A DNA stretch of 64,000 nt from an uncultured Gemmatimonadaceae bacterium (GCA_963829055.1 CAWHHI010000016.1:480001-544000); one strand, 5' to 3'. Positions 528-63,728 are shown, counted from the first letter of the stretch. Notes: generated from the letters alone by a model not told the origin. Numbers and translations are program-made.

Positions 528-1515
528 CGTGCACCTAACGCGCACCGATAAACCGCGAGTGTTCGTGGTCCGACGCCTTCCGACGACCGTCGAGGCTCAA
601 CTTCGCGAACGCTACGACGTCTCGCTCAACGCGACGGACGAGACGTACTCGCTCGACCGTCTCGTAGATGCGGCCCGTGAGTTCGATGCGCTCGTGCCCA
701 CCGTCGTGGACAACGTGCCCGCACCCGTTTTCGAGTCGGGCGAGAGGCGCATCCGCCTCGTCGCGAACTATGGCGTCGGGTACGACCGGATCGACATCGA
801 TGCCGCCAGGCGGGAGGGCGTCGTCGTCACGAACACGCCGGGGGTCCTCACCGAGGATACCGCCGACCTCGCGCTCCTGTTGCTGCTCGCCGCCGCACGC
901 CGAGCAGGTGAGGCCGAGCGTCAGTTGCGCGCCGCGCGTTGGGACGGGTGGAGACCGACGCACATGCTCGGCACACGCGTGAACGGCGCGACGCTCGGGA
1001 TCGTGGGGTACGGTCGGATCGGCGCGGCTGTCGCCAGACGCGCGCACCAGGGATTCGGCATGCGCGTGCTCTACGTGAACCCGAGCGCGCCTGATGCGGA
1101 CGCCGTCGCTGCAGCGTCGGCCGAACGGTGCGAGTCACTCGACGAGTTGCTCGCGCAGAGCGACTTCGTGTCGCTGCATGCGCCCGCGCGTGAGGGAACA
1201 CGTCGAATGCTCAATGCGCGGAGGATCGCGCTCATGCGCCCTGGAGCGATACTCGTGAACACCGCGCGTGGCGATCTCGTCGACGAAGCGGCACTCGCCG
1301 ATGCGCTGCAGCGGGGCGCGCTCTCGGCCGCAGGCCTCGACGTCTTCGAGCGCGAACCCAGCGTGTCCCCACGCTTGCTCGCGCTGGAAAACGTCGTCCT
1401 GCTGCCCCACATCGGGAGTGCCACGACTGCATCCCGCGTGGCGATGGGTGATCGCGTGCTCGCCAACCTCGACGCATTCTTTCGCGGCGGTGAACCTCCG
1501 GACCGCGTGGCGTGA
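502..1515 (+). CDS. D-glycerate dehydrogenase / glyoxylate reductase (D-2-hydroxyacid dehydrogenase family)
   Basis: Motifs ANYGVGYDRID, TNTPGVLTEDTAD, GIVGYGRIG, VNTARG, GLDVFEREP and LPHIGSAT. The start codon is uncertain (502 or 529). Confidence 0.9.
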   Translation: MATAAASPDVHLTRTDKPRVFVVRRLPTTVEAQLRERYDVSLNATDETYSLDRLVDAAREFDALVPTVVDNVPAPVFESGERRIRLVANYGVGYDRIDIDAARREGVVVTNTPGVLTEDTADLALLLLLAAARRAGEAERQLRAARWDGWRPTHMLGTRVNGATLGIVGYGRIGAAVARRAHQGFGMRVLYVNPSAPDADAVAAASAERCESLDELLAQSDFVSLHAPAREGTRRMLNARRIALMRPGAILVNTARGDLVDEAALADALQRGALSAAGLDVFEREPSVSPRLLALENVVLLPHIGSATTASRVAMGDRVLANLDAFFRGGEPPDRVA

Positions 1516-1559
1516 CGTTCGGCTACGCAATGGATCGTTCACCGAGCGGTGAGTTGCGC

Positions 1560-1589
1560 TTGCCCGGGTACTACGACGGTCCCTAGCTT
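1560..1589 (+). promoter_or_regulatory. Possible sigma70-type promoter for pepA
   Basis: TTGCCC-N18-TAGCTT upstream of the ATG at 1620. Confidence 0.35.
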
Positions 1590-1619
1590 ACCGCTCTCTT
1601 TGCCCCCAACTGACACGCA

Positions 1620-3104: not shown

Positions 3105-5051
3105 TTGTTCGTCGCCGTCGCACGACACGCTCGTTGCATCGGCCTCGCCCTTCTGGTCGGGGCCGTTTTGCACGAGACCGTTCAGGCACAGGTTCCCACG
3201 CGAGACACGACGCGCACGCGTCGCGACTCGACGAGGGCAGACTCGCTGCGGCGCCGCGCCGATTCGATTTCCGTCGCGATCCCGCTCCCCGCCGATTCCG
3301 CGCGCGCCGATTCGGTGCGCGCGCGACAACGAGCAGACAGTGTGCGCGCCGCGATCCTCGCCCGCCGCGCTGCCGACAGCGTGAAGGCCCCGTTGGCGCG
3401 GGCGGAAGTTCCGCCGCTGGCCGACATCGGCGAGCGCTATCGCTGGACGCGCGAGGAACTGTTCGCGAGCGGTTCGCTCTCGTTAGGCGAGCTGCTGGGC
3501 CGCGTTCCCGGAGTGACGAACTTCGCGTCGGGGTGGGTCCCGACGCCGCACATCGACTCCTACCTGGGCGACTTCCGCCGCGTCCGGCTCTTCTACGACG
3601 GCGTCGAGCTCGACCCATTGGATGTCCGGATCGGGCCGATGCACGACTTCACCACCATTCCCATGTGGACGCTCGAGGAGTTGGTCGTCGAGCGCGCGGC
3701 TGAAGAGCTCCGCGTCTACATGCGCAGTTGGCGCGTGAACAAGACGACGCCGTACACCAGCGTGGACGTCTCCACTGGCGATCTCACCACGAACAGGTAT
3801 CGCGGATTCTTCGGCCGTCGCTTCGGCGAACTCCACCGCGCTCCAAATCGGAGCGCAGCAGTACAGCACGGAAGATCAGCGTGCCGGCGGCGACGGGAAT
3901 CATCTCAGTACTTTTACCCGTTTCGGGTGGGCGAAGAAAAGCTGGAGCGCCGACGCGGTCCTCTTGCGAACGAGACGCAATCGAAACGAACAGCTACGCG
4001 ACTCGGTTGGCGGTCAGGCCGGCTTTGCGAACTTGCCCGCACTCGAGGCGACCCGCACGGATGCGTATGCGCGGATCGGATACGGCGATCCAGAAGGTGC
4101 GCGCTGGCTCCAGATCATCGCGTCCACGAGTCGGTTCGCCGAAACGAACACGAAGACGGCGACGGGCACGACGACCGGAACCGAGCCATTCGTTGGGGAC
4201 ACGGTGGATTCCATCGCTTCTCGCGCGCAGTACGTCGTGACCGCCGGGCTGACCGTCCTCGGCGCGAAGGTATCCGCGACCGGGCGATACCGGGTCTTCA
4301 ACGGACTGGTGGTTCCTGACGCCATCGGCGCGCATTGGCTACGACCGCGGGATGCTGTCGACGACCGCGTACGTGGAGCAGCAGGAGTCCGACTCGACGT
4401 TCCGCGCTGACTTCTCGGCCCGGTTGACGCCGTTCAAATTTCTCGCAATCGCCGGCTCGTTAGGCAGGATGAGTCCGATCAACGAGAGTACGCGACCGAC
4501 GTCCCTGTCGTATCGCGGTGAGGTCGGGCTTCGTCTCGGCCGCCTGTGGGCCACGGGCGGCATCACGTCGCATCGACACGACGATCGTTCCGCCACCGCG
4601 CGCCTACGATACCCTCTATGTCGAGGCGGCGATCGGTGCACACCGCGGTACGTTTGTGACACTGCGTGGACCGATCTGGAAAGGCATTGGTCTCAACGTC
4701 AGCGCGATGCAATGGGACAGCGTCGCCTACCTGCCGAAGTACCAGGTGCGGACGGAGCTGTATGCGAAGACGAGCTGGCTCAGCCGGTTTCCGCAGGGAA
4801 ACTTTCACGTGCTGGCGTCGGTGGCGCACGAGTATCGAACAGGCATCTCGTTCCCGGTCGTCGCGGATGCGGTCGAGCAGCTCAGCTCCCAGTACCGCGT
4901 CATCACGACACTGTTCGAGCTGCGCCTGTACGACGCCGTGCTCAGCTGGCAGTACCGGAACATTCTGGGCACCATTTACCAGCAGGTGCCGGGTTTCACC
5001 GCGCCCCGCGCGATCAATGTGTACGGCGTGCGGTGGGACTTCTTCAATTGA
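3105..5051 (+). CDS. Outer-membrane protein with a TonB-dependent-receptor plug-like domain; three +1 frameshifts (near 3828, 4311 and 4568)
   Basis: Signal-peptide-like N-terminus and the plug-like segment LGELLGRVPGV...LFYDGVELD...DFTTIPMWTLEELVVER. Beta-strand-like segments continue through ORFs 3964, 4352 and 4518 to an aromatic C-terminus (WDFFN). The start codon is uncertain. Confidence 0.6.
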
Positions 5052-6856: not shown

Positions 6857-8063
6857 GTGACTCGGCCCTTTGATCAGCGACGTATTCTGCTCGGCGTCAC
6901 CGGTGGAATCGCCGCCTACAAATCGGCGTGGATTGCTCGCCTGCTCACGCAGGCGGGCGCCGCGGTCGATGTGGTGCTTACCCGATCCGCGGCCGAATTC
7001 ATTGGCGCGATCACGTTCGAGGCGCTCACGGGGCGACCGGTCCACACCGCGCTCATCGCCGAAGGGCACGCACTCGATCACATCAAGCTCGCGCGGGCGG
7101 CAGACGCCATCGTCGTAGCTCCCGCGACGGCAGATTTCATCGCTCGCGCGGCGAACGGCCACGCTGATGAGTTACTCTCGGCATGCCTGCTGGCTGCCAC
7201 AGCTCCGGTGTTGATCGTTCCGGCGATGAACGACCGGATGTGGGCGCATCAGCAGACCCGCGCGAACGTCGCGCACCTCCAGGCGATCGGGTACAACGTC
7301 CTCGAGCCTAACGAGGGACCGCTCGCGGTCGGCGAGGGCGCCGGACCGGGACGACTGCCCGAGCCGGAGACGATCGTGGCGCACGTCGCGCGCATGATGG
7401 AACCGGCCGGAGCGCTCCGAGGTAAAAGAATCGTCGTCACGGCGGGCCCGACGCGTGAGCCGGTGGATCCGGTGCGGTTCATCTCGAACCGAAGCAGCGG
7501 CAAGATGGGCGTCGCCATTGCTGCCGCGGCATGGCGTCGGGGTGCTGACGTGAACCTCATCGCGGGGCCGATGCACATCGGCACTCCGGCCGGGGCGACC
7601 GTCACGATGGTCGAGACCACCGAGCAGATGCGCGCCGCGGTCGCGGACGCAATCGCTCAGGCGGATGCGCTCATCATGGCCGCCGCGCCCGCGGATTTTC
7701 GCCCCGCGTCGCCGTCGAACCAGAAGATCAAGAAAGCGAACGCGCCGACGGCCATCGAGCTCGAGCCGACGCCCGATATCCTGTCGTCGACCATCGGGAC
7801 CCGCCCCGACAAAGCTCGTTACGGTCGGCTTCGCACTCGAGACCAACTCCGCCGTGGAGCACGGACGCGGAAAGTTGGCTGCAAAACAGCTCGATCTCAT
7901 TGTCGTGAACGACGCCACCGAACCGGGTGCAGGATTCTCGGTCGATACGAATCGCGTCACGTTCATCGACGGCGACGGCCTCGCCAATGAGCAGCCGCTG
8001 CTGGCGAAGAGCGATGTCGCGGACCTCATACTCGACCGCGTCGAGCGGTTGATGCAGCGCTGA
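6857..8063 (+). CDS. coaBC: Phosphopantothenoylcysteine decarboxylase/synthetase, with a +1 frameshift near 7811
   Basis: GVTGGIAAYK, PAMNDRM and TAGPTREPVDPVRFISNRSSGKMG. The C-terminal VGFALET...LIVVND segment is in ORF 7665..8063. Confidence 0.93.
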
Positions 8064-8066: not shown

Positions 8067-9147
8067 ATGGATCCGAAAGAGCAACTTCGTCGTTACCTCG
8101 AACAGCGTCGCGAAACCGGCGAACGCGAGCTCATCCTCGACGGCATGTCCGTCGAGGATGTGATGCGCATTCTCGGCGCGACCGCCACCGCCGGGAGTGC
8201 ACCCGCTCGATCGGTGAACCGCGGTAACGACCGTCGCGACGACCGTGTGGACGAGCGCCCAGCGCCGACCGTGAGCCCACGCGAGGAGCGTGTGCCGGAT
8301 GCACCCGTGGGTGATTGGCGCGAGGTGCTCCGCGCGACCGGCAGCGCTCCGACGCGCCAGCCAGCGCCGTCTCGCGAAGCCTCACCACCACCGGCCGCCC
8401 CACCGTCGCAACACGCCGCGCCCACGCCGGACGCCTCGGACGATCGCAACGTTAGGCAGGCGTCGAACGAGCCCGAGCCAGTGATCCCTGCGCCGGCGGC
8501 TCCCGCCCGCCCCGTCGGCCGACGCGCCACCGGGCATCGTGGTCGGGCAGGTGAGCCGCGAATTGTTCGGCAGCACGCTCGCCACCGTCCCCACGCTCGC
8601 AGACCTCGCCGAGATCATCGCCAAGTGCACGCGCTGCCCGCTGTACAAGACGGCGACGAATCCTGTACCCGGGGAAGGGAGCCCGACCGCAGAACTGGTG
8701 TGCGTCGGCGAGGCACCGGGCGAAAACGAGGACAAGACCGGCCGTCCGTTCGTCGGCCCTGCAGGTCAACTCCTGACGAAGATTCTCGCCGCCATTAACT
8801 TGAGCCGCGAGGACGTGTTCATCTGCAACGTGCTCAAGCATCGGCCGCCGGGGAATCGCAATCCGTTGCCCCAGGAGGTCGAAGCATGCAGTCCGTATCT
8901 GGTGCGCCAGCTCGAGATCATTCGTCCAAAGGTCATCGTCGCGTTCGGCACGTTCGCCGCTCAGACGCTGCTCGAAACGAAGCTCTCGATCGGCAAACTC
9001 CGTGGCTCCGTGCATCGCTACTACGGCATACCGCTCGTGGTGACGTATCACCCTGCCGCGCTCCTTCGGAACCCGGCGTGGAAGCGCCCAACCTGGGAAG
9101 ATGTCCAGCTCGCCCGTCGAGTACTCGATCGCGCCTCAGGGACGTGA
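8067..9147 (+). CDS. Family-4 uracil-DNA glycosylase with a long Pro/Ala-rich N-terminal region; probable +1 frameshift near 8520-8530
   Basis: CTRCPLY, VGEAPG, GRPFVGPAG, RPPGNRNP and TYHPAALLR are in ORF 8539..9147. The N-terminal part is in ORF 8067. Confidence 0.85.
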
Positions 9148-10532: not shown

Positions 10533-11936
10533 GTGACACCGAAGGTCAAGACAGTCTACCGCTGCACCGAGTGTGGCGCCGATCATCCGAAGTGGGCTGG
10601 CCGGTGCGATGTGTGCGGCGAGTGGAACACGCTCGTCGAGGAAACCGCCGCGCCGAAGGTGCGCGCGGCGTTCGGCGGCGGGAACGCGCGGCGTGTCGGC
10701 GGCCATGAATCGTTAGGCGCCGGCGGAACGGTGGTCGAGACGACGCGCATCAGTCACGTCGTCGGCTCCGAATCCGCTCGCGTCCGCACCGGCATCGACG
10801 AATTCGACTTCGTCCTCGGTGGCGGCATCGTGCCGGGGTCCATGGTGCTCGTGGGCGGCGAACCGGGCATCGGCAAGTCGACGATCCTGCTGCAGGTTGC
10901 CGCGCGCGTCACGGAACGTGGTGGACTCACGCTCTATGTCACCGGCGAGGAATCGCCGCTGCAGGTCAAGCTTCGCGCGGATCGCCTCGGAGACGGCAGC
11001 GGGGAGGTGGAGCTGCTGAGCGAGACGCTGCTCGAAACCATTCTCGCCACCGCGACCGCGCGTCAGCCACGAGTCATGATCGTCGACTCGATCCAGACCG
11101 TGTTCACCGGAGATCTCGAAGGCGCGCCGGGGAACGTCGGCCAGGTACGCGAGTGCGCGGCTCGCTTGATGCGCTTCGCGAAAGAATCGGGCACCGCAGT
11201 GATCGTCGTCGGCCACGTGACCAAGGGCGGCGGCATTGCAGGGCCGAAGACGCTCGAGCACATCGTGGACACGGTGCTGTACTTCGAAGGCGACAGTGCG
11301 CTCGACCACCGCGTGCTCAGAGCGACGAAGAATCGGTTCGGAAGTGTCGACGAGATCGGCGTGTTCCGCATGAGCGAGAGTGGACTCTCGCCGGTCGCGA
11401 ACCCGTCAGAGCTGTTCCTCGGCGATCGCCTAACGACCGCCTCCGGAAGCGCGGTGACGGCCCTGCTCGAGGGGACGCGACCAGTGCTGGTGGAAGTGCA
11501 GGCGCTGGCGGCGAAGGCCGGTTTCGGCACCCCACAACGCGTTGCCACGGGATACGACGGGCGTCGACTGGCGTTACTGCTCGCGGTCCTCGACAAGCGC
11601 GCAGGGCTGCCCTTCGCTCAGCTCGACGTCTTTCTGAACATCGTCGGTGGCATTGTCATGCGAGAGCCGGCGGGCGATCTCGCCGTCGCCGCATCGCTTG
11701 CGTCGAGCGTCTTCGATCGTGCGCTGCCAGCGGACGCCGTGTTTCTCGGGGAAGTCGGCCTGGGCGGTGAGATCCGCCCCGTGTCACAATCCGAGCGACG
11801 TCTCGCGGAAGCCGCGAAGATGGGGATGTCCACGGCCTACGTCTCCGAGCGTGGCGTGCCGCGTCGCACGACTGCGGGCATCAAGGCTGTTGGAGTGCGA
11901 ACCGTCAGCGATCTGTTCGCGACCTTGTTCAAATGA
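10533..11936 (+). CDS. radA: DNA repair protein RadA/Sms
   Basis: N-terminal CxxC...CxxC zinc finger, GGEPGIGKST, the KNRFG motif and a Lon-like C-terminus. Confidence 0.97.
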   Translation: MTPKVKTVYRCTECGADHPKWAGRCDVCGEWNTLVEETAAPKVRAAFGGGNARRVGGHESLGAGGTVVETTRISHVVGSESARVRTGIDEFDFVLGGGIVPGSMVLVGGEPGIGKSTILLQVAARVTERGGLTLYVTGEESPLQVKLRADRLGDGSGEVELLSETLLETILATATARQPRVMIVDSIQTVFTGDLEGAPGNVGQVRECAARLMRFAKESGTAVIVVGHVTKGGGIAGPKTLEHIVDTVLYFEGDSALDHRVLRATKNRFGSVDEIGVFRMSESGLSPVANPSELFLGDRLTTASGSAVTALLEGTRPVLVEVQALAAKAGFGTPQRVATGYDGRRLALLLAVLDKRAGLPFAQLDVFLNIVGGIVMREPAGDLAVAASLASSVFDRALPADAVFLGEVGLGGEIRPVSQSERRLAEAAKMGMSTAYVSERGVPRRTTAGIKAVGVRTVSDLFATLFK

Positions 11937-13884: not shown

Positions 13885-14687
13885 GGCCGTTGCCGGGCCG
13901 CCTCGTCCTTCTCGGGCACCCGGTCGATCACTCGTTGTCCCCGACGTTCCAAAACGCTGCGCTCTCGAGCGCAGCGTTGCCGCTCCGGTACGAAGCACTC
14001 GACGTTGCGCCCGAGCAGCTCGACACGACGCTCGACGCGCTCATCGCGGCACGCGCGTCAGGCAACGTCACGATCCCGCACAAGGAACGCGTCGCCGTAC
14101 GCTGTGCGCGCCTAACGCCGCTGGCCGAACGCGTCGGAGCGGTGAACACGTTCTGGGTCGAGGACGGCGCGCTCAGTGGCGACAACACGGACGTCGGCGG
14201 ATTTCTCGAGCTGCTCGCCGCGACCGCGCCGGATGTGGACCGCTCGCAACCTGTCGCAGTGCTTGGTGCGGGCGGAGCAGCCGCCGGCGTTCTTGCCGCA
14301 CTGGAGCAGGAGCGTTTCGACGACGTCCGTGTGTACGCGCGAACGAGAACGCGCGCCGACGCGCTGTGTGCGCGGTTTCCTGCTTCGCACGCGGTCGCCG
14401 ACCTCGGGCAAGCAATGCGTGGTGCGGCGCTCGTCGTGAACGCGACGCCGCTCGGGCTCGATGGGCAATCGTTGCCGTTCGACGTCGCACTCCTCGAACA
14501 ACGCGCGGTCGTGCTCGACCTCGTCGTGCATCGTGGCGAAACGCCGCTGGTGCGCGCCGCACGAGCGAGAGGCCATCGCGCCGCGGACGGACTGGATATG
14601 CTGCTGGGGCAAGGCGCGCTCGCGTTCGAGCGTTGGTTCGGTATCGCCCCGGATCGCGATGTCATGCGAGCATCAGTCGCGCGCTAG
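13881..14687 (+). CDS. aroE: Shikimate dehydrogenase
   Basis: GHPVDHSLSP, NVTIPHK, GAVNT, NTDVGG, GAGGAA and DGLDMLLGQG. Confidence 0.93.
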   Translation: MRPLPGRLVLLGHPVDHSLSPTFQNAALSSAALPLRYEALDVAPEQLDTTLDALIAARASGNVTIPHKERVAVRCARLTPLAERVGAVNTFWVEDGALSGDNTDVGGFLELLAATAPDVDRSQPVAVLGAGGAAAGVLAALEQERFDDVRVYARTRTRADALCARFPASHAVADLGQAMRGAALVVNATPLGLDGQSLPFDVALLEQRAVVLDLVVHRGETPLVRAARARGHRAADGLDMLLGQGALAFERWFGIAPDRDVMRASVAR

Positions 14688-16557: not shown

Positions 16558-17762
16558 GTGATTTCCAAGCGAACCATCCGAGATCTCACCGACGCCGAAG
16601 TGCGCGGAAAACGTGCACTCGTGCGCGTGGACTTCAACGTGCCGCTCGATGACAGCGGCGCCGTCACGGACGACACGCGAATCCGCGCGGCGCTGCCCAC
16701 CATCGACGCGCTGGTGAGCCGCGGCGCGCGGGTTGTGTTGCTATCACATCTTGGACGTCCGAAAGGGAAAGCCCGAGGCGAAGTATTCGCTCGCGCCCGT
16801 CGCGAAGCGTCTCGGCGAGCTGACGTCGCACCCGGTGCGGTTCGTCGCTGCACTCGACGGCGACGACGCCGTCGCGGCAACGCGCGCGCTGACCGATGGG
16901 CAAATTCTGTTGCTGGAGAACACGAGATTCTCTTCCGGCGAGGAGAAGAACGACGACGCGCTCGCGCAGTCACTCGCCCGCCTCGGCGATCTCTACGTGA
17001 ACGATGCGTTCGGCGCCGCGCACCGCGCGCATTCGTCCACGGCGGGCGTCGCGAAGCACCTGCACCCAGCCGTGGCCGGCTTGCTCATGGAGAAGGAGCT
17101 CGAATACCTGGGCGCGGCGCTGACCGATCCGCAGCGGCCGTTCATCGCCGTGCTCGGTGGCTCGAAGATCTCGGGGAAGATCGACGTCATCGAGGCGTTG
17201 CTGCCGAAAGTCGACGGACTGCTCATTGGCGGCGCGATGGCGAACACGTTCTACAAGGCGATGGGGCTCGAGACGGGCAAGTCACTGGTCGAGCCGGATC
17301 GCGTCGAGCTCGCGAAGTCGTTGCTCGATCGTGCGCGCGTACCGACTGACGCTGCCTCACGACGCGATCGTGGCGGCGTCGCTGGATCAACCTAACGCCG
17401 CCCATGCCGTTCGGCGCGACGGCATTCCGCCTAACGAAGCCATGTACGACATTGGCCCGGATACGATACGGTCGTATAGCCGGGCGATCGCCACGGCGAA
17501 GACGATCCTGTGGAACGGGCCGATGGGCGTGTTCGAGAAGCCGCCGTTCGACGCCGGAACAAACGCGGTCGCGCAAGCGATGGCCGAGGCCACCGGTCGC
17601 GGCGCCACGACGATCGTCGGCGGCGGCGATTCCGCGGCGGCCGTGACGGAGGCAGGGCTCGAGAAGCGCATGAGCCACGTGTCCACTGGTGGCGGCGCCT
17701 CGCTCGAGTTCCTCGAGGGCAAGCCGCTGCCCGGGGTCGACGCCCTGGAGGATCGCCGGTGA
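16558..17762 (+). CDS. pgk: Phosphoglycerate kinase, with two +1 frameshifts (near 16768 and 17340)
   Basis: RVDFNVP and SHLGRP are in the first frame. [18 protein letters not shown] and GGSKISGK are in the second. [14 protein letters not shown] and [15 protein letters not shown] are in the third. Confidence 0.94.
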
Positions 17763-46943: not shown

Positions 46944-48090
46944 GTGAACATCCACGAATACCAGGCGAAGGACATCCTGCGCGGTTACGGCGTTCCGATT
47001 CCGCCCGGTGATGTCGCGGCTACAGCCGACGAGGCCGAGCAGATCGCGCGGCGCATCGGGCGCACCGTCGTCGTGAAGGCGCAGGTGCATGCCGGCGGAC
47101 GCGGGAAAGCTGGCGGTGTGAAGCTCGCGAAAACGCCGGAAGAGGCGCGCGAGGTCGCCAGCCGCATCCTCGGCATGCAGATCAAGGGGCTGACGGTGCA
47201 GAAGGTGCTCGTCACCGACGCCGCCGATATCGCGAGCGAAGCCTATGTCGGCGTCATCCTCGACCGGGCGTCGAAAAAGCCGGTGTTCATGGTGAGTCCC
47301 GCGGGCGGTATCGACATCGAGGAAGTCGCCGCGAAGACTCCCGAGAAGATCATGCGGCTGCCCGATCGACACGCGATACGGGCTCATGCCGTTCCAGGCG
47401 ATGGAGCTCGGTTTCTTCCTGTATCCCGATGCGACCAAGGCGCGTGCGGCCTCGAAGATCATGAAGCAGCTGTACGATGCGTTCATGGCCACAGGGGCAT
47501 CGCTCGCCGAGATCAATCCGCTGGTCGTCACGCCCGCCGGCGATGTCATCGCGCTCGACGCGAAGATCTCCATCGATGACAACGAGCTGGATCGTCTGCC
47601 GAAGATCGCAGCGTTGCGCGATGAGTCCGCCGAGGAGCCGAGCGAGGTGCTGGCTCGTAAGGCGAACCTCACGTTCATCAAGCTCGATGGAAACGTCGGG
47701 TGCGTGGTGAACGGCGCGGGCCTCGCCATGGCGACGATGGACCTCGTCAAGTTCTACGGCGGCGAGCCGGCCAACTTCCTCGACATCGGCGGCTCGTCGA
47801 ATCCCGAGAAGGTCGTGAACGCGCTGCGCATCATCACTGCCGACCCTAACGTGAAAGCCATCCTGTTCAACATCTTCGGTGGCATCACGCGCACCGATGA
47901 CGTCGCGAACGGTATCGTCACGGCCACGAAGCAGAACCCACTCAAGGTGCCGATCGTGATCCGCCTAACGGGAACCAACGAGGAGATCGCGCTCAGGATT
48001 CTCACCGAGAACGGATTCTCGGCCATGACCGACATGGACGAAGCCGTGCAGCGCGCCGTGCAGCTGGCGACGGGAGGAAAGGCCGCGTGA
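46944..48090 (+). CDS. sucC: Succinyl-CoA synthetase beta subunit, with a +1 frameshift near 47362
   Basis: MNIHEYQAK and [14 protein letters not shown], then [20 protein letters not shown] and NIFGGI in ORF 47386..48090. Confidence 0.95.
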
Positions 48091-52142: not shown

Positions 52143-53128
52143 AGCGACCCATTGCGTACCTCGCGGGGACTGGACGTGCGGCCCCGGCGAAGGTGGTCAC
52201 GAACAACGACTTCGCCGCGTTAGGCCTCGAAACGTCGCACGAGTGGATCGTCGAGCGCACCGGCATCAGTGAGCGCCGGATCGCTGGCCCCGGAGAATCG
52301 ACGTGCTCGCTCGCGGCCACAGCGGCACGCACCGCCATGCAGCGCGCGCGTGTGACTCCGGGCGAGCTCGACGTGATCGTGCTCAGCACCGCCACGCCCG
52401 ATCGCCTGCTGCCTGCCACGGCCGTCGATGTGCAGGCGGCGCTCGGGGCGACGCGTGCGGCCGCGTTCGATATCTCTGCGGCATGCTCCGGCTTCCTCTA
52501 CGGCCTGCAGGTCGCCGAAGGGTTGATGTCCGCCGGCTCGCACGAGACGGTGCTAGTCGTGAGCGCCGAGAAGATGAGCGCGATCGTCGACTGGACGGAC
52601 CGTTCCACGTGCGTGCTGTTCGGTGACGGTGCAGGCGCGGCTGTCCTGCAGCGGTCAGAAGACGGGAAGGGCATCCTGTCGTCCTTCGTTCGCAGCGACG
52701 GAACGCTCGCCGAGCTCCTCTATCGGCCGGGCGGCGGCGCACTGGTGCCGTTCACAGAAGACGTGTTGAAGGATCGCAGCCACTATGTGAAGATGGCGGG
52801 CCGCGAAGTGTTCAAGCACGCGGTGCGCTCGATGGCCGAAGCCGCCGACCGCGCGCTCGATGCGGCACGCCTAACGGGCAACGATATCGACGTCATGATC
52901 CCGCACCAGGCGAACGTGCGCATCATCGAGGCGACCGCGAAGCACGCGAATATTCCGATGGACAAGGTCTACGTGAACGTCGATCGCTACGGCAATACGT
53001 CATCGGCATCGATCCCGATCGCGCTGGATGAGGCGATCGAGTGCGGGCGCGTCAAGGAGGGATCGACTGTGTTGATGGTCGCCTTCGGCGCCGGGTTCAC
53101 TTGGGGCTCCACGATCGTTCGCTTCTAG
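52139..53128 (+). CDS. fabH: 3-oxoacyl-ACP synthase III
   Basis: WIVERTGI, AACSGF, LFGDGAGA, HQAN and YGNTS. Confidence 0.96.
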   Translation: MKRPIAYLAGTGRAAPAKVVTNNDFAALGLETSHEWIVERTGISERRIAGPGESTCSLAATAARTAMQRARVTPGELDVIVLSTATPDRLLPATAVDVQAALGATRAAAFDISAACSGFLYGLQVAEGLMSAGSHETVLVVSAEKMSAIVDWTDRSTCVLFGDGAGAAVLQRSEDGKGILSSFVRSDGTLAELLYRPGGGALVPFTEDVLKDRSHYVKMAGREVFKHAVRSMAEAADRALDAARLTGNDIDVMIPHQANVRIIEATAKHANIPMDKVYVNVDRYGNTSSASIPIALDEAIECGRVKEGSTVLMVAFGAGFTWGSTIVRF

Positions 53129-53139: not shown

Positions 53140-54078
53140 ATGAACGTCGTTCTGCTGTTCCCGGGACAGGGATCGCAGAAGCCGGGTATGGGCAAGGATC
53201 TCGTCGAGACGCTTGCGCCTGCACGCGACACATTCGCGGCGGTGAATCAGGCCCTCGGCGAGTCGCTGAGCACACTCTGCTTCGACGGCCCCGCGGACAC
53301 GCTGACACTGACGCACAACGCGCAGCCGGCGTTGCTCGCGCACGGCGCCGCCGTGTGGGCTGCCGTCCGTGATCGCGTCGGTCCCCATGTTCGTGCCGCA
53401 GCCGGCCATTCGCTTGGCGAGTTCACCGCCTACCATGCCGCCGACGCGCTGGAGCTCACGCGCGCGGCGAGGCTCGTTAGGCGCCGCGGGGAGCTCATGC
53501 TCGAGAGCGGCGTTGAGCGACCGGGGACCATGGCGGCCATTCTCGGTGACGTCGCCGGTGGCATCGAAGCCGTGTGTGCGCAGGCCAGCGCGGAAGGCGG
53601 CTGCGTGGTGCCCGCGAACTACAACTCGCCGGGGCAGGTCGTGATCTCCGGCGAGATCGCGGCCGTGGAACGCGCAATGGAGATGGCGAAGGCCGCCGGC
53701 GCGAAGCGCGCCATTCGCCTCAACGTGAGTGGAGCGTTTCACTCGCCGCTCATGGAGGTCGCGCGCGGCGGGCTCGAACGTGCGCTCGACGACGCGGCGC
53801 TTCGTGATCCGACGTTCCCGGTCTACGCGAACGTCACAGCGGAGCCTGTGCATACGGCGACCGATGCTCGCCGCCTCCTTCTCGAGCAACTCACCGCACC
53901 CGTCGCCTGGACGCGCGTCGTCGAGCGGCTCGCGGCTGACTATCCGGACGCGCTGTACGTCGAGATGGGTCCGGGCAACGTTCTCACCGGACTCGTGAAG
54001 AAGATCGCGCCGACGTTGCAGACGACCACCTGCGGCACCATGGCCGAGGTGGACCAGTTGCTGGCGAGGGTCGCTTGA
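53140..54078 (+). CDS. fabD: Malonyl-CoA:ACP transacylase
   Basis: FPGQGSQ, GHSLGE, VSGAFHS and GPG. Confidence 0.96.
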   Translation: MNVVLLFPGQGSQKPGMGKDLVETLAPARDTFAAVNQALGESLSTLCFDGPADTLTLTHNAQPALLAHGAAVWAAVRDRVGPHVRAAAGHSLGEFTAYHAADALELTRAARLVRRRGELMLESGVERPGTMAAILGDVAGGIEAVCAQASAEGGCVVPANYNSPGQVVISGEIAAVERAMEMAKAAGAKRAIRLNVSGAFHSPLMEVARGGLERALDDAALRDPTFPVYANVTAEPVHTATDARRLLLEQLTAPVAWTRVVERLAADYPDALYVEMGPGNVLTGLVKKIAPTLQTTTCGTMAEVDQLLARVA

Positions 54079-56378: not shown

Positions 56379-57569
56379 GTGATCGTGCGCGCTCCGCTCG
56401 ACCTGCCGATGCACCGTCTGTCTGACGCGGCGCTTCGCCCGATCGCCGAAAAGCTCGGTGCTGGCGAGCGGTTGGATGATGCGGACGCCCTGACCCTGTT
56501 CGACTCGCCCGATCTGCTCGGTGTTGGAGCGCTCGCTGACGCAGTGAATCGCGCGAAGCACGGCAACCGCGTGACGTTCGCCGCGAACCAGCACATCAAT
56601 CCCACGAACGTGTGCGTGCTGCGGAAGACCTGTGTCTTCTGTGGCTACGCGCGTTTGCCCAAGGAAGACGGCGCGTATCGGTACACGCTGGAGCAGGTGC
56701 TCGCGGAAGCGGAACCAGCACGCAATGGACTGACGAAGGAGTTTCACATCGTCGGCGGGCTGGATATGAAGGCGGGCCTCGCGTACTACACGGCGATGTT
56801 CCGCGCGCTCAAGCGCGAGTTCCCGCACGTCCACATCAAGGCGCTCACGGCCGTCGAAATTGCGCACATCGCGCGCATCGAGAAGATGACGTGGGAGGCG
56901 GTGCTCATCGCGCTCAGGGAAGCCGGCCTCGATACGATGCCCGGCGGCGGCGCGGAGACGTTCAGTGCCGCCGTGCGAGAGCAGATCGCCGACAAGAAGC
57001 TCGGCGGCGCCGACTACATCGACGTGCATCGCACGGCGCATCGTCTCGGGATCCGCACGAATTGCACGATGCTGTACGGCCACGTCGAGACCCACGCCGA
57101 TCGCGTGGCACACCTGCGCATGCTTCGCGACCTGCAGGATGAGACCCGCGGATTTCTCGCGTACATCCCGCTCGCGTATCACCCGGACGACAACGAGCTC
57201 GGGATCGAGTTGAAGCGTCGCGGCGTGGCGAGCACAGGCTACGATGACCTGCGCAACCTTGCCGTGGGCAGACTGTTCCTCGACAACATCGATCACATCA
57301 AGACGCACTGGATCATGGTCACGCCGTTCCTGTCGCAGACGTCGCTGTCGTTCGGCGTCAACGACATGGAAGGAACGGTGGTCCGCGAAAAGATCTATCA
57401 CGCGGTCGGAGCGCATACGCCGCAGGCGATGACGCTGGAAGAGATCATTCGCCTGATCCGCGGCGCCAGGAAGATCCCCGCGGAGCGCGACTCGTTCTAC
57501 AACGTGCTGCGCACTTTCCCGGAGCAGGAACCGGCAACAGCGGTATCGGTGTCCGTCGAGGCAGCCTAA
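56379..57569 (+). CDS. mqnE: Aminofutalosine synthase (radical SAM)
   Basis: CofH/MqnE-like motifs HINPTNVC, EFHIVGG, PGGGAE, TMLYGH and HIKTHW, adjacent to mqnA and mqnC. Confidence 0.85.
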   Translation: MIVRAPLDLPMHRLSDAALRPIAEKLGAGERLDDADALTLFDSPDLLGVGALADAVNRAKHGNRVTFAANQHINPTNVCVLRKTCVFCGYARLPKEDGAYRYTLEQVLAEAEPARNGLTKEFHIVGGLDMKAGLAYYTAMFRALKREFPHVHIKALTAVEIAHIARIEKMTWEAVLIALREAGLDTMPGGGAETFSAAVREQIADKKLGGADYIDVHRTAHRLGIRTNCTMLYGHVETHADRVAHLRMLRDLQDETRGFLAYIPLAYHPDDNELGIELKRRGVASTGYDDLRNLAVGRLFLDNIDHIKTHWIMVTPFLSQTSLSFGVNDMEGTVVREKIYHAVGAHTPQAMTLEEIIRLIRGARKIPAERDSFYNVLRTFPEQEPATAVSVSVEAA

Positions 57570-57570
57570 C

Positions 57571-58450
57571 GTGCGCGTCGGACGCATTCCGTACGTCAAC
57601 TGCTATCCGGTGTACGGCGCCATTGATCGTGGCGTGGTGACGCTGAAGGCCACGTTGGTGGATGGAGTGCCGAGTGCGCTGAATCGCCGCATGGCCGACG
57701 GGTCGCTCGACGTCAGCGTCGTCTCCGCGGTCGAGTACGCCCGCGACGCCCGGCGCTACCTCTTACTCCCGGATCTCGCGATCTCCTGCGACGGACCGGT
57801 CCGCAGCGTGATGCTCTTCTCGCGCCGGCCCGCGAGCGAGCTCGATGGCAAGCGGGTCATCGTGAGCCGGAGCTCGATGACGAGCGTCGCGCTCCTCGAG
57901 TTGTTGTTCGAGAACGTCTGGCACGCTCGCCCTGAATTCATCGCTGGAGACGCCGAGATGTCCGATATCGCGGCGTTCGATCGAGAGCAGCACGAAGCTC
58001 GGCTAGTCATAGGGGACGCGGCGCTGGTGCTTCGCGGCGAGTCGCGTCCGCGCATCGCCGAGACGTCGGTCGCTGATGCGTCGCGCGCGGGAACGATGCC
58101 CAGCTACCCGTTCTCGTACGACCTCGGCGAAACCTGGAAAGCGTGGACGGGGCTGCCCTTCGTGTTCGCCGTTTGGGTCGCGCAGCGGACGGCTCCGGTA
58201 GCGGAGGCGCTTGGCGTGCACGCGAGCCTGATCGAGTCCCGCAATTGGGGGCTGAAACATTTGCCGGCACTTGCCGCGCAGGCGTCGTCAGGCGACGGGT
58301 GTGTCCGAACCAGTGTGCCACGAATACCTGTCGGGACTGGATTACGGCCTCTCGTACGAGCACCTCGCTGGCCTGACGGAATTCTTCCGGCGCCTCGTGG
58401 CAGCCGGCGTCGTGCCTAACGGGACCCTCGCGTTTCTGCCCGCCGCGTAG
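57571..58450 (+). CDS. mqnA: Chorismate dehydratase, with a +1 frameshift near 58289
   Basis: GRIPYVNCYP, ISCDGPVRSV, SMTSV, LVIGD and YDLG..W..WTGLPFVFAVW. The C-terminus (EYLSGLDY...GLTEFF) ends at TAG 58448-58450. Confidence 0.9.
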
Positions 58451-58498: not shown

Positions 58499-59533
58499 AT
58501 GAATGATCTGCTCGAGTTCTACACCAACGCTCCGCTGCTCGAGCTCGGTGCCGAGGCGAACCGCATGCGCCTGGAGCGCCACCCCGAGGGGATCGTCACC
58601 TTCATCGTCGATCGCAACATCAACTACACGAACGTCTGTGTAGCCGACTGCGGATTCTGCGCCTTCTACCGGCGGCCGAAGCACGGCGAGGGGTACACGC
58701 TGTCGTTCGAGCAGATCGGTCACAAGATCGACGAGACGAAGGCGTTAGGCGGCGTGCAGATCCTCATCCAGGGTGGGCACAATCCGTACATCCCGTTCGA
58801 GTGGTACCTGGACCTGCTGCGCTACATCAAGACGTATCATCCGATTCACATCCACGGATTCAGCCCGAGCGAGGTCGACTTCTTCGCCAAGGTGTTCCGC
58901 ATGGATGCGCGCGACGTGATCCGCGAGTTGCGCAAGGCTGGACTGGATTCGATTCCTGGTGGCGGCGGCGAGATCCTCGTCCAGCGCGTCCGCGATATCG
59001 TCGCGCCGAAGAAAGCCGGCGCCGACCGGTGGCTCGAGATCATGGAGCTCGCGCATAACGAGGGAATGAAGACGTCGGTGACGATGATGTACGGCATCGG
59101 CGAAACGCTCGCCGAGCGGATCGAACACCTCGAGCGCGTGCGTGATCTTCAGGCGCGCACCGGCGGCTTCACCGCGTTCATCTGCTGGCCGCTCCAGCCG
59201 GAGAACACGCCGTCGATGTCGCACATGCAGCGCACCGACGCCGTGGACTACCTGCGCACGGTGGCCATGGCGCGCATCGTCCTGGAGAACGTGCCGAACC
59301 TGCAGTCGAGCTGGGTCACGATGGGCATGAAGGTCGGCCAGCTCGCGCTCACGTTCGGCTGCAACGACTTCGGATCGCTGATGATCGAGGAGAACGTCGT
59401 CTCGGCCGCGAACACGACACACCGAACGACGATCGAGGAGCTCGAGCATCTCATCATCGACGCCGGCTTCCAGCCGCGTCGGCGACGCCAGGACTACTCG
59501 ATCCTCGAGACGCCCGCGGGAGTAGCCGCCTGA
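58499..59533 (+). CDS. mqnC: Cyclic dehypoxanthine futalosine synthase (radical SAM)
   Basis: DRNINYTNVCVADCGFCAF, LIQGG, IPGGGGEIL, QSSWVT and GSLMIEENVV. Confidence 0.93.
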   Translation: MNDLLEFYTNAPLLELGAEANRMRLERHPEGIVTFIVDRNINYTNVCVADCGFCAFYRRPKHGEGYTLSFEQIGHKIDETKALGGVQILIQGGHNPYIPFEWYLDLLRYIKTYHPIHIHGFSPSEVDFFAKVFRMDARDVIRELRKAGLDSIPGGGGEILVQRVRDIVAPKKAGADRWLEIMELAHNEGMKTSVTMMYGIGETLAERIEHLERVRDLQARTGGFTAFICWPLQPENTPSMSHMQRTDAVDYLRTVAMARIVLENVPNLQSSWVTMGMKVGQLALTFGCNDFGSLMIEENVVSAANTTHRTTIEELEHLIIDAGFQPRRRRQDYSILETPAGVAA

Positions 59534-60720: not shown

Positions 60721-61637
60721 GCGCGCCAGGCCCTGCGTCGCAGGCCGTCCGTCGTTTCCTGCTCGAGCCGTTCAACGACTTCTTGCTGCTCGAGCAAGGC
60801 GCGTCGCCGCGAACCAACGAGGCCTACGGTCGAGATCTCGAGCGCTTCGCGACGTATGTCATTGGGCGCGGCGCGCCGACGCCCGGTGAGGTATCATCGC
60901 GATTGCTTCGCGAGTACCTCTATCACCTGAAGGACCTCGGGCTCGCGCCCGCGTCGATCCGACGCAACGTGTCGTCGCTGCGGACGTACTTCAAGTTCCT
61001 CCTCGGCGAGGGCCACGTGGCTCGCGATCCGAGTGAGCGGCTCGAGTCGCCGAAGCGATGGAGAGCGCTGCCCGAAGTGCTGAGCGTCGCGGAGATCGAT
61101 CGGCTGCTCGCGTCACCGACGCTGGATGATCCGCTGGTGTTCCGCGACCGCGCGATGCTGGAGCTGGCATACGGCGCTGGCCTGCGTGTCTCCGAATGGA
61201 TCTCCATCGGCACCCGAGACCTCATGTTCGACGAGGGGCTCGTCCGCGTATTCGGCAAGGGCAGCAAGGAGCGCCTCGTTCCCATAGGGCGGAGGGCGAT
61301 CGGCGCACTAGCGACGTACATCCGTGAACTGCGTCCGCGACTCGAGCAGGGTGACGGCCGCGGCGTCCTGTTCCTCAACGCGCGTGGCGAGCCGCTCACA
61401 CGCATGGGGGCGTGGAAGATCCTCCAGAAGTACGTCACGCGCGCAGGGATCGAGAAGCACGTCTCGCCACACACGCTTCGCCACTCCTTCGCGACGCATT
61501 TGCTCGAGGGTGGTGCGGATCTGCGTGCGGTCCAGGAAATGCTTGGGCATGCTGACATCTCGACCACGCAGATCTACACGCACGTGGACCGCGAGTATCT
61601 TCGAAGCGTTCACCGGAAGTATCACCCGCGCGGCTGA
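60717..61637 (+). CDS. xerD: Chromosomal tyrosine recombinase XerD
   Basis: AYGRDL, RDRAMLELAYGAGLRVSE, GKGSKERLVP and SPHTLRHSFATHLLEGGADLRAVQEMLGHADISTTQIYTHV. Confidence 0.92.
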   Translation: MSAPGPASQAVRRFLLEPFNDFLLLEQGASPRTNEAYGRDLERFATYVIGRGAPTPGEVSSRLLREYLYHLKDLGLAPASIRRNVSSLRTYFKFLLGEGHVARDPSERLESPKRWRALPEVLSVAEIDRLLASPTLDDPLVFRDRAMLELAYGAGLRVSEWISIGTRDLMFDEGLVRVFGKGSKERLVPIGRRAIGALATYIRELRPRLEQGDGRGVLFLNARGEPLTRMGAWKILQKYVTRAGIEKHVSPHTLRHSFATHLLEGGADLRAVQEMLGHADISTTQIYTHVDREYLRSVHRKYHPRG

Positions 61638-61647
61638 TTTCTCGTCC

Positions 61648-62223
61648 ATGCTCCTCGTCATAGACAACTACGACTCGTTCACCTACAACCTCGTGCAGTA
61701 TCTCGGCGAGCTTGGGGCGGACGTCGTCGTGCGTCGCAACGATGCGGTGACCGTGGATGAAGTCGGCGCGCTCCGACCCAGCGCGATCGTGGTCTCACCG
61801 GGACCGTGCGCGCCGAGTCAGGCGGGGATAACGGTACCGGTCATCCGACAGTGGGGGAGTTCCATCCCCACGCTCGGCGTGTGCCTCGGGCATCAGGCCA
61901 TCGGCGAAGCGTACGGCGGGCGCGTCGTCCGCGCCCGTCACGTTATGCACGGAAAGGCCTCGACGGTGCGGCACGACGGCACGGGCTTGTTCGACGGCCT
62001 ACCGACTCCGCTGTCCGTCATGCGCTATCACTCGCTGATCGTAGAACGTGAGTCGTTCCCGTCGGAGCTCGAGGTTCTCGCTGTGTCGACCGAAGATCCG
62101 ACCGAGATTCATGCGTTGCGCCATCGCACGCATCCGGTCTGGGGAGTACAGTTTCATCCGGAGTCCATCCTAACGACGGGCGGGAAGACGATCCTCAGGA
62201 ACTTCCTGTCGCTCGCCGGATGA
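61648..62223 (+). CDS. Anthranilate/aminodeoxychorismate synthase component II (glutamine amidotransferase, TrpG/PabA)
   Basis: IDNYDSFTYNL, SPGP, GVCLGHQ, RYHSL and QFHPES. Confidence 0.93.
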   Translation: MLLVIDNYDSFTYNLVQYLGELGADVVVRRNDAVTVDEVGALRPSAIVVSPGPCAPSQAGITVPVIRQWGSSIPTLGVCLGHQAIGEAYGGRVVRARHVMHGKASTVRHDGTGLFDGLPTPLSVMRYHSLIVERESFPSELEVLAVSTEDPTEIHALRHRTHPVWGVQFHPESILTTGGKTILRNFLSLAG

Positions 62224-63728
62224 GGCGTGGCAGCTGGCTCGCGGCACTGATCGCGGTCGGTGTCGCCACGCGAGCCGCTGCGCAACACGCTGGTCAGAGC
62301 ACCATTCAGATCGAGGCTCCCGCGCGAGCGGAGCCCGCGCGAATACTCCGCGCTGCGATCGCCGGACCGCACGACATCATCCTCACGGACTCCACCCGGC
62401 GTCTGATGCTGCCGCGAGGCACCACGCTCCCGCGGACGAGTATCGTCATCGGCGGCAACGTGTCAGTGGGGGCGGGCGTACGCGGTGACATCATCGTCGT
62501 CGGGGGTGACCTCTTCCTCTCACCCGGTGCAGCGATCGACGGCCGCGCCATTGCCATAGGCGGCGCGGTCTACGGGTCTACACTGGCCGTCGTCGCTGGA
62601 GGCACACAGAGCTTCCGAGATGCAACATTCGACGCGACCACGACAGCAGCTGGACTACGACTCGACTACCGCGATACCGAGGAGCCGCCGGCAGCATTCG
62701 AGTTGCCACTCGTGGCAGGGTTGCGCATGCCGTCGTACGACCGTGTACAGGGCGCGAGCATACCGTGGGGGCCGATACTTCGCCCAACGGCGCGTGTGGA
62801 GCTCGACCCCACGGTCACGTACCGATCGCACATTGGGGAGTGGGATCCTGGCATCGCGGTCGTCGTTCGGGCCGGAGACGTGTGGAGCCTAACGCTGGAC
62901 GCTCGGCGCGGCACGTTTACGAACGACGCGTGGATCCAGACGAATCTCGTCAACAGCTTCAACACGTTGGTCGCCGGCGTCGACTCCCGAAACTACTTCC
63001 GCGCGGATCGCGGCGAAGTCGCGATCCGCCGCACCGATCGTACTGCGACGCTCGAGCTCGAAACCGCATTCGGCGTCTCCACCGAGCAAGCGTCGTCTGT
63101 CGGGTCACCGGACACGCTCGGCGGTCGACCATGGAGCCTCGTCGGCCGAGGTGACGCCGATAACCTTCGCCGCCCGAATCCACCGGTGCAGCGAGGTCGC
63201 ATCCATTCGGCCTTCGTGGGCTCGAATGCGGAATGGATGGTCGGCGATGTCCGAATGAAGGGATGGTATCGGATCGAGTTGCCGTGGGAGACGCCTGGTG
63301 ACGTTAGGTTCGTTCAGGTTACCGCCGACGGCACCATTCAGTTCCCGACGTTCGGGCTTCAGCGCTTCCGGGCTGATGTGCACGTCGTTGCGACACCAGG
63401 CGACACCACGCCTCCGCAGCGGTTCGCGTACCTCGGCGGCTGGGGCACCCTTCCGGCCACCGGTGGCCTCCTGTCGCTCGGTGGAGATCAGCTCCTTTAC
63501 GTCGACAGCCGGTACGAAATTCCGCTGCAGCGTATCAAGATCCCGTTCGTCGGATCGCCCATGTTCAGCCTGAGACACCGCGCCGGATCCGCCGGCGTCC
63601 AGCACCTGCCTCGGCTGACTCAGAACGTGGGAGCGCTGCTCACGTTGAGCCTCGTCCGAGTCGAGTACGCGGTAGACCCCGCGACTCGGAAGCAGTCGCT
63701 CGGCGTCGGACTTTCGATCGCCCGGTAG
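62220..63728 (+). CDS. Hypothetical exported/outer-membrane protein
   Basis: Signal peptide, a Gly/Val/Ile-rich beta-helix-like repeat region, and then amphipathic beta-strand-like sequence. Confidence 0.6.
   Translation: MRRGSWLAALIAVGVATRAAAQHAGQSTIQIEAPARAEPARILRAAIAGPHDIILTDSTRRLMLPRGTTLPRTSIVIGGNVSVGAGVRGDIIVVGGDLFLSPGAAIDGRAIAIGGAVYGSTLAVVAGGTQSFRDATFDATTTAAGLRLDYRDTEEPPAAFELPLVAGLRMPSYDRVQGASIPWGPILRPTARVELDPTVTYRSHIGEWDPGIAVVVRAGDVWSLTLDARRGTFTNDAWIQTNLVNSFNTLVAGVDSRNYFRADRGEVAIRRTDRTATLELETAFGVSTEQASSVGSPDTLGGRPWSLVGRGDADNLRRPNPPVQRGRIHSAFVGSNAEWMVGDVRMKGWYRIELPWETPGDVRFVQVTADGTIQFPTFGLQRFRADVHVVATPGDTTPPQRFAYLGGWGTLPATGGLLSLGGDQLLYVDSRYEIPLQRIKIPFVGSPMFSLRHRAGSAGVQHLPRLTQNVGALLTLSLVRVEYAVDPATRKQSLGVGLSIAR

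Follow-up and report, generated by a model that had tools for sequence, protein, structure and literature searches.

A hyper-abundant, non-palindromic octamer of Gemmatimonadaceae genomes that resembles bacterial DNA uptake sequences

Introduction

The DNA uptake sequences (DUS) of the Neisseriaceae, whose receptor is ComP, occur in eight dialects, and together with the uptake signal sequences (USS) of the Pasteurellaceae they make up the DNA uptake enhancing sequences (DUES). Other short chromosomal words, such as Chi, the FtsK orienting polar sequences (KOPS) and the architecture imparting sequences (AIMS), are strongly strand-skewed and far less enriched than the word considered here. This is the octamer GCCTAACG, found in a 64,000-nucleotide stretch from an uncultured Gemmatimonadaceae bacterium (GCA_963829055.1, CAWHHI010000016.1:480001-544000, in our naming G000:C16:480001-544000; hereafter the window). 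In a looser form of about V-C-[C/A]-T-A-A-C-[G/A], it is a DNA-level signal and a putative ‘self word’: it is hyper-abundant, independent of reading frame, free of strand skew, conserved with turnover, restricted to a few genera, subject to dialect and surrounded by an exclusion zone.

Passages of Treangen et al. (PMC2397512) place the mean distance between DUS at ~1,150-1,500 nt. HIP1 of cyanobacteria (highly iterated palindrome 1, GCGATCGC) is presented in parts of PMC5861425 as an octamer that is 15- to 300-fold over-represented, lies on coding sequence, is conserved and is spatially non-random, and PMC13756078 now proposes a role for it in natural transformation. In the literature considered here, the tagging of self DNA by sequence belongs to two proteobacterial families, which HIP1 is now proposed to join. 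A second kind of word that matters here comes from integrons, whose boxes are given in a section of PMC3053210 as RYYYAAC (inverse core) and GTTRRRY (core).

We surveyed 31 genomes of the order, seven of them from the genus of the window: the genome of the window itself (G000; 7,784,024 bases in 20 contigs) and six congeners. In the literature searched, the word was nowhere used as a genomic motif, primers and constructs being among the matches listed for its strings, and no paper was found that joins Gemmatimon* with ‘uptake sequence’.

Results

A preliminary description of the window had listed 24 starts of CCTAAC and 22 of its complement GTTAGG, all of which proved exact, as did the flanking bases: CCTAAC is always followed by G, and GTTAGG is preceded by C 16 times, by T 5 times and by G once. 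The roughly 40 heptamers claimed there are 40 copies of CCTAACG (24 on the + strand and 16 on the - strand), against an expectation of 2.68 (sd 1.62, maximum 8) over 100 dinucleotide-preserving shuffles, none of which reached 40. Genome-wide, the heptamer occurs 3,154 + 3,237 = 6,391 times on the two strands. It holds the core of the motif and is one base too short, since position -1 is G in 78% of the 6,391 copies. The full word is thus the octamer GCCTAACG, which differs from its reverse complement, CGTTAGGC, and is present in 31 of the 40 heptamer copies in the window.

An order-3 Markov model predicts 257.5 copies of GCCTAACG, whereas the 7.78 Mb of the genome contain 5,004 (observed/expected ratio, O/E, 19), which makes it by far the most over-represented 8-mer. 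The control words of the preliminary description are rare in the genome, both strands summed (CCTAAGG 65, GCTAACG 194 and ACTAACG 70 copies). The 5,518 genes that we called conservatively, which cover 66% of the genome, contain 1,355 + 1,612 octamers, compared with a mean of 85 + 48 in 20 synonymous-codon shuffles, or 2,967 observed against 133, and with 36 + 24 in 10 shuffles of codon order. The test by which that description would have had its signal refuted thus did not refute it. The mean gap between octamers is 1,530 bp, which agrees with the signal about every 1.4 kb proposed from the window. Outside positions -1 to +8 the flanks hold 0.00-0.16 bits of information, so the word is no part of a longer repeat, and a dispersed repeat of the repetitive extragenic palindrome or miniature inverted-repeat transposable element type was ruled out on the same ground. 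These counts describe a real, strong and lineage-restricted DNA word.

The word does not depend on reading frame. All four stop-free frames are used in genes of G000, as the window had suggested (xCG-TTA-GGC 1,219, CCT-AAC 809, CTA-ACG 543 and GTT-AGG 390 copies), and the rare codons it brings with it are found inside it to a large extent, namely 48% of all TTA, 17% of CTA, 11% of CCT and 8% of AGG codons. The stop-containing frames are used as well: 179 of 703 TAA stops lie in GCCTAACG and 141 of 1,433 TAG stops in CGTTAGGC, although some called stops are artefacts because the assembly has single-base indel errors and many split genes. That a quarter of TAA stops fall in the word is a new observation, and copies are also concentrated 0-50 nt past gene ends.

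The balance of orientations seen in the window holds for the genome, with 2,457 forward and 2,547 reverse copies. The share of the leading, G-rich strand is 52%, and ~55% on the two arms of contig C16 around its skew switch. In runs tests, orientation is random along every contig longer than 300 kb (|z| < 2.1), while two smaller contigs show orientation clustering (C18, z -3.3; C19, z -2.5). Polar guide sequences of the Chi or KOPS kind are likewise short, non-palindromic and over-represented, but this explanation is already contradicted by the lack of skew and deserves hardly any credence. The GC skew of C16 turns from positive to negative near 550 kb, just beyond the end of the window, and a XerD gene lies at 60687-61637 of the window; the region near 550 kb is possibly the replication terminus.

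Sites repel one another within ~250 bp, a further new observation. Gaps shorter than 200 bp number 213 against 611 expected, a threefold deficit, and the pair correlation, which is 0.17 below 50 bp, climbs to 0.5 at 150-200 bp and 0.9 at 300-500 bp before levelling off at ~1.0 from 500 bp onwards. The exclusion is equal for direct, convergent and divergent pairs, and the pair-correlation curve of G014, which belongs to another genus, matches that of G000. It extends to the enriched one-off variants ACCTAACG (827 copies), CCCTAACG (428), GCATAACG (583) and GCCTAACA (435) and to GCCTAACC (112). Canonical sites repel these five as strongly as they do one another (0.28-0.47 below 100 bp), whereas five control words are not repelled (1.00-1.13). 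Since the variants are repelled like canonical copies, they count as sites, which brings the total to ~7,400. The dialect words of G010, described below, are mutually repelled too (2 pairs within 300 bp against ~10 expected).

It follows from the exclusion zone that upkeep works over a neighbourhood some hundreds of bases wide and not on each site alone, which argues against a site-autonomous repair bias. Repair of the very-short-patch type, or a mutation bias, that turns near-matches into the word would explain why one-off variants at positions 2 and 7 are so rare (9-58 copies each). Their depletion, however, stems partly from the general scarcity of TA-containing words, counts in the word-poor G008 being similarly low; such a process predicts no exclusion zone; new sites often stand 3-5 of 8 positions away from the relatives’ sequence instead of one; and no C5 methylase partner was found in the searches reported below. 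We therefore consider it very improbable.

The exclusion fits a drive on fragments and selection for evenly spread binding sites alike. Under the second of these, GCCTAACG would be the binding site of an abundant chromosomal protein, active in nucleoid structure, repair, segregation or replication, and weak selection would keep about one site per neighbourhood, with even coverage and short-range redundancy as the result. The orientation-free exclusion that includes variants and recurs in a second genus, the conservation of sites above background, the absence of skew and the near-uniform coverage all suit such a protein. Yet Chi and KOPS, as classes of sites kept for their function, are far less enriched; no candidate protein limited to the three word-bearing genera was found; sibling genera whose gene sets are the same get by without it; and, at thousands of sites, the selection on each would need to be stronger than a strong codon bias. 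On balance we judge this account unlikely, while giving it some weight.

Coverage of G000 is near uniform: besides three contig-end segments, there are five gaps longer than 12 kb. The five, each of 12-16 kb, contain genes of ordinary metabolism and no mobile-element hallmarks. The idea that word-free stretches are genomic islands was rejected, as the three largest stand at contig ends with housekeeping genes and the five gaps are ordinary. The three contig ends (C6:5440-55037, C6:591808-623330 and C11:1-46789; 31-50 kb, GC 0.66-0.73) contain second copies of phosphoglucomutase and M17 aminopeptidase, and are probably mis-joined or contaminant DNA of a word-less organism.

Among the 31 genomes, hyper-abundance is limited to the window’s genus, one more genus and a third genus with a dialect, all of one family. 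GCCTAACG has 2,501-5,112 copies in all seven genomes of the window’s genus and 6,360 in the 5.1 Mb of G014, where the sequence logo equals that of G000. Copy numbers fall to 605 in G010, 345 in G030 and 194 in G018, and to 3-65 in the remaining 20 genomes. G013, which is marked as unpublished, contributes a single row to these counts. In G010 the octamer is still the top 8-mer (O/E 25) and is accompanied by a dialect form, GCCAAACG, with 925 copies against 110 for a control word; this form is enriched in none of the 30 other genomes. The word-poor G008, of like GC, shows what composition alone yields: 4 copies of GCCTAACG were observed against 1.7-7.8 expected in a 400 kb sample, and no hyper-abundant 8-mer was found there (top O/E 2.5). 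The idea of a dialect in every genus was dropped on this result, G008 being the one word-poor genome sampled for dialect words. Identity of nuo-operon DNA to G000 is 68-75% in motif-rich and motif-poor genera alike. A sample of G014 also holds a second repeated word, ATAGGGGATA / CTATCCCCTA, with 23-25 copies in 333 kb, which is probably part of a dispersed repeat.

The comparison with relatives that had been suggested for the window showed conservation. Scored by BLAST projection over ~56 kb of the window that align to congeners at ~80% identity, 46-54% of sites are kept in five of the six congeners, where the figure for all 8-mers is 18-22%. In the sixth, G003, 3 of 11 sites are kept, and G014 keeps 3 of 10 against 11% of all 8-mers. 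Between species, the word is kept 2-3 times better than other 8-mers. Sites behave in an all-or-none manner, those not kept often differing at 3-5 of 8 positions in the relatives, where ordinary synonymous codons stand in their place (CTC-GGN for TTA-GGC and CTG-ACG for CTA-ACG). The same pattern of conservation with turnover is described for DUS in passages of Treangen et al. (PMC2397512).

A methyltransferase that tracks the word, sought as a possible reader, did not emerge. The families PF00145 (C5 methylase) and PF01555 (N6/N4 methylase), searched in 31 genomes, were found in none of the seven genomes of the genus, and none of PF02384, PF02086 and PF07669, searched in five genomes, tracks the word; a D12-class fragment at C8:134909-135647 of G000 is absent from G014. 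A Type IIG-like N6-adenine methylase of 1,060 aa, with Eco57I and MmeI_Mtase domains and overlapping an SNF2 helicase gene downstream (L091:3141-8596 on G001:C159; G000:C8:73551-76755), is present in 31 of 31 genomes, and its NPPW and DPACGSG motifs are kept in 14 of 14 aligned family members. Its tree matches taxonomy, which is unusual for a restriction-type gene, and in G000 the gene is split over several frames. Because the enzyme is in all 31 genomes, its presence cannot explain the word. Over region 741-900, G001, G014 and G010 are alike at 49-50%, against 40-45% to G008, G017 and G018; the word-less G015 stands at 51%, and the target-recognition part was rejected as a discriminator for that reason.

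MmeI-class enzymes read short non-palindromic sites that contain an adenine, whereas restriction-linked sites are usually avoided and not enriched. This frames the proposal that GCCTAACG is the recognition site of a methyltransferase, for example the order-wide Type IIG-like enzyme with its SNF2 partner, and serves as an epigenetic self mark, as has been proposed for HIP1. The existence of the pair with both motifs intact speaks for it, as does the statement, in PMC13756078, that the enhancement of transformation by HIP1 depends on methylation. The proposal is weakened by the presence of the enzyme in motif-rich and motif-poor genomes with a tree that follows taxonomy, by the lack of any region of it that clearly sets off the motif-rich genera and by the absence of PF00145 and PF01555 from the genus, and we think it improbable.

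The word had not been recognised from any described system, but its spelling is that of the integron attC boxes: GCCTAAC and GTTAGGC match both consensus boxes perfectly. In word-poor relatives the word occurs mostly in same-strand clusters with copies 500-700 bp apart, and in G021 at least 46 of the 65 copies lie in three such clusters. Same-strand copies ~600 bp apart in G021 and G019 might have come from a giant repeat-protein gene, a possibility that was rejected, as the clusters are cassette arrays (G021:C95, G021:C80, G019:C3, G019:C26 and G020:C8), some of them beside integrase genes. Read by eye, the attC sites in these arrays have the form GCCTAAC(G/A/C), an imperfect palindrome of 75-115 nt, and GTTAGGC or GTTAGAC; two sites of the same form lie in G007:C133. 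Within 27 kb of G021:C95, GTTAGGC occurs 29 times on one strand and 24 times on the opposite one, and the array holds at least 24 attC sites. The word is thus the terminal box of attC sites in the integrons of this order, which is new.

Chromosomal integrons are common in the order, with an integrase above the TIGR02249 cut-off in 18 of the 31 genomes. In G000 and G021:C80 the integrase lies downstream of the array in the same transcription sense. The intI gene of G000 (C20:208041-208958) scores 265.7 bits against a cut-off of 265, and at least two attC-like hairpins stand beside it (region C20:202700-208958), with the ends ACCTAACG or GGCTAACG and CGTTAGGC. Hairpin energy is no discriminator in such GC-rich DNA, the attC candidates lying at -18 to -26 kcal/mol and random sites averaging -24 kcal/mol.

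The word is indeed identical with the attC box, yet its copies across the genome do not form attC sites. They stand alone, a partner box being absent 50-130 nt away, and pairs with attC boxes 57-141 bp apart show no enrichment (40 of attC type, 28 reversed and 33 direct). They differ from attC boxes also in lying in housekeeping genes, in tolerating variants outside the R/Y rule and in needing no integrase gene. The 18 genomes with an integrase include at least 10 that are motif-poor, so that integrase presence is unrelated to word abundance, and the TIGR02249 search of the 31 genomes found none in the motif-rich G002, G004 and G010. Given that the genome-wide copies are solitary, that integrase is unlinked to abundance and that the variants break the R/Y rule, an integrase is an unlikely reader of them.

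The copies could still be solo R boxes for an integron integrase or a relative of one, used for the docking of cassettes, for attG-like insertion or as a platform for making cassettes. The attC boxes in the arrays of relatives, the G000 intI gene with its hairpins, and the crowding of copies on stop codons and 0-50 nt past gene ends, positions at which an incoming cassette would leave the gene intact, are what such a role would lead one to see, and parts of bioRxiv 10.1101/2022.09.11.507474 report that integrases can insert cassettes at genomic attG sites. In the same parts, however, the attG consensus is merely GWT. Integrase presence and the unenriched attC-type pairs do not bear the idea out, most copies sit within essential genes, so that an insertion there would kill the cell, RYYYAAC is violated by tolerated variants (C3 to A; T4 to A in G010), and variants of the Y-for-Y type, which attC typically shows, are very rare (GTCTAACG 24 copies, GCTTAACG 24 copies). 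The idea is, in our view, a poor prospect.

Within the window, the 31 octamers range from sites shared across species to sites specific to G000. Those in radA (10711..10718, -, and 11428..11435, +), at 17429..17436 (+) and in sdhC (24217..24224, +) are kept in five of five aligned congeners, and that in sucC (47963..47970, +) in six of six. Both nuoF sites reach the other genus, the one at 32114..32121 (-) being kept in five of five aligned genomes including G014 and the one at 32457..32464 (+) in G001, G002 and G014. The nuoD site (30700..30707, +) is common to G005 and G014, with GCCTGACG in G001 and G002. The site in the nuoF/nuoG spacer (33327..33334, +) and that in fabH (52869..52876, +) are kept in four of four congeners, and another in the fabH region (52218..52225, -) in three of four.

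Sites specific to G000 lie at 7306..7313 (+; four aligned congeners differ at 2-3 of 8 positions), 14110..14117 (+; five differ at 2-5 of 8), 18126..18133 (+; five differ at 3-5), in sdhA (25947..25954, -), at 39511..39518 (-), at the nuoM/nuoN junction (41394..41401, +), in pgm (43346..43353, -; relatives differ at 3-6) and at 44530..44537 (-; relatives differ at 3-4). Congeners have GCCGAACG or GCCCAACG at the mdh site (23000..23007, +) and the synonymous CGCTCGGC at the mqnC site (58743..58750, -), and relatives have the synonymous CGCTCGGT or CCCTGGGT at one nuoG site (34757..34764, -); the other nuoG site (34229..34236, -) encodes Leu-Gly as TTA-GGC. The remaining octamers are at 3481..3488 (-; the + strand reads CGTTAGGC), 4458..4465 (-), 8450..8457 (-), 27547..27554 (+, intergenic), in fabD (53475..53482, -), at 57564..57571 (+), at the end of the open reading frame 57571-58419 (58414..58421, +) and at 62887..62894 (+). 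The copy at 57564 does supply the mqnE stop codon, as had been claimed (TAA, 57567-57569), and those said to lie between genes, at 26356 (between sdhA and sdhB), 27547 and 33327, do so.

Variants fill the other positions. The tolerated ACCTAACG stands on the + strand at 533..540, 17390..17397, 26356..26363 (the sdhA/sdhB spacer) and 45843..45850, and on the - strand, where the + strand reads CGTTAGGT, at 35347..35354 and 63302..63309. The tolerated GCCTAACA (+ strand TGTTAGGC) is found on the - strand at 23776..23783, 24873..24880, 25839..25846, 39182..39189 and 44919..44926, the tolerated CCCTAACG at 47844..47851 (+) and GCCTAACC (+ strand GGTTAGGC) at 38996..39003 (-). The variant TCCTAACG, at 26870..26877 (+) and 62168..62175 (+), is unenriched genome-wide.

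A ComF-family gene (14697-15488) and radA (10533-11936) adjoin in the window, together with dnaB. Intergenic heptamer arrays lie at 59540-59620, 28133-28166 and 16530-16552, with the units GGGAACC/GGGAATC four times alongside an inverted GATTCCC array and CCATCAG three times; stretches of 30-80 bp match these arrays at many places in five of five congeners searched. The best matches of SdhA are metagenome-assembled genomes of Gemmatimonadaceae and Gemmatimonadales at 79-81% identity, and contigs that match the window come from 21 public runs in 15 studies of soil, rhizosphere and freshwater sediment. Of 853 differences between public contigs and the window, the 40 listed leave the word sites untouched, which, as all these data are contigs, says nothing on polymorphism or methylation. 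Like other long-read assemblies, that of G000 contains single-base indel errors: one base is missing at 27533, 28146, 39226 and 42948 in all or most of the public short-read contigs that cover these positions, and split genes (16733-18592, pgk/tpi; 2308-3099) affect several housekeeping functions.

Discussion

As far as sequence alone can show, the word shares nearly all the behaviour of the Neisseriaceae and Pasteurellaceae uptake sequences. Both are short non-palindromic words that occur once per ~1-1.5 kb on both strands and in every permitted frame, both are conserved above background yet turn over, with new sites too divergent to have come from single point mutations, and both are limited to certain genera, have a one-letter dialect and occur in genomes that contain genes for DNA uptake. 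The differences are that the present word belongs to the phylum Gemmatimonadota and is known from sequence alone, that its core has 8 bases instead of 9-12, that it is almost never an inverted terminator pair, that it coincides with the attC box and that it has a clear short-range exclusion zone, none being described for DUS in the parts of PMC2397512 drawn on here. With HIP1 it shares being an octamer imposed on coding sequence and conserved between genomes; HIP1, however, is a palindrome with two cognate orphan methylases, whereas GCCTAACG is non-palindromic, is tracked by no methylase in our searches and shows short-range exclusion and no long-range periodicity that we could find.

The candidates named in the preliminary description, an uptake sequence, a methylation- or repair-driven motif and a nucleoid-protein site, did include the readings that are still live; methylation and site-autonomous repair have since lost ground, and the evidence favours the uptake sequence among them. 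We tentatively propose, short of confidence, that GCCTAACG is a self tag of the DUS/USS kind, kept by a drive that acts on segments and is linked to uptake or recombination. Some process would install and keep the word wherever proteins tolerate it, through synonymous changes, stop codons and spacers, with one word per ~1-1.5 kb on either strand as the outcome. It would act on segments of a few hundred bases, an existing site lifting the pressure within ~250 bp. By analogy with the known systems, we infer that the reader belongs to DNA uptake or recombination; such a sequence-specific reader would favour fragments that bear the word, and word-bearing alleles would then spread by homologous recombination, as a molecular drive with or without selection for self DNA.

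The machinery for uptake suits this proposal: all 31 genomes contain ComEC, the five tested contain DprA, a secretin and an HHH domain of ComEA type, and a ComF gene lies in the window itself. Several observations weigh against it. The competence genes, which the preliminary description had proposed to correlate with the word, do not track it, being equally present in motif-less genera. Competence genes were hence rejected as discriminators, since they are present everywhere examined. Five pilin-like open reading frames were found, and the one searched matched all 31 genomes through its conserved N-terminus, so that this search of one in five yielded no lineage-specific pattern and no receptor candidate. 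Pairs of sites within 60 bp number only 38, 13 of them inverted, whereas about half of DUES sites form inverted pairs in terminators according to parts of bioRxiv 10.1101/2025.10.24.684340. The tree of the 1,060-aa methylase leaves the branching of the motif-bearing genera unsettled, and a single origin of the word in the three genera, which may have occurred, is neither supported nor contradicted by it. If one site served a whole fragment of kilobase size, an exclusion longer than ~250 bp would be expected, and evenly spread binding sites of a chromosomal protein would give the same spacing and conservation. Finally, a plain drive leaves the identity with the attC box unexplained.

That identity may be chance, or it may reflect a reader whose specificity is aimed at gene cassettes. 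In a version that we find improbable, a DNA reader, most plausibly of uptake or recombination, would have the specificity of the attC terminal box and would first have fished cassettes from environmental DNA, after which drive tagged the chromosome. The chromosome would then be cut into cassette-sized tagged segments, with many tags exactly on stop codons. If true, such a reader would join natural transformation and integrons in one system and would bear on how genes gain attC-like ends.

Our findings offer several points of departure. Sibling genera with and without the word, together with a dialect genus, make phylogenetic profiling for the reader feasible. The exclusion zone is a quantitative handle on the length scale of the force at work, and the spelling shared with the attC box points to a testable link from uptake or recombination to the capture of cassettes. 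As a practical use, the word is a marker by which genuine DNA of these genera stands out in metagenome bins. If the self-tag proposal is true, a third or fourth lineage, from a soil phylum with few cultured members, would join those with sequence-tagged DNA, and genome-wide words would be a recurrent outcome of bacterial DNA exchange.

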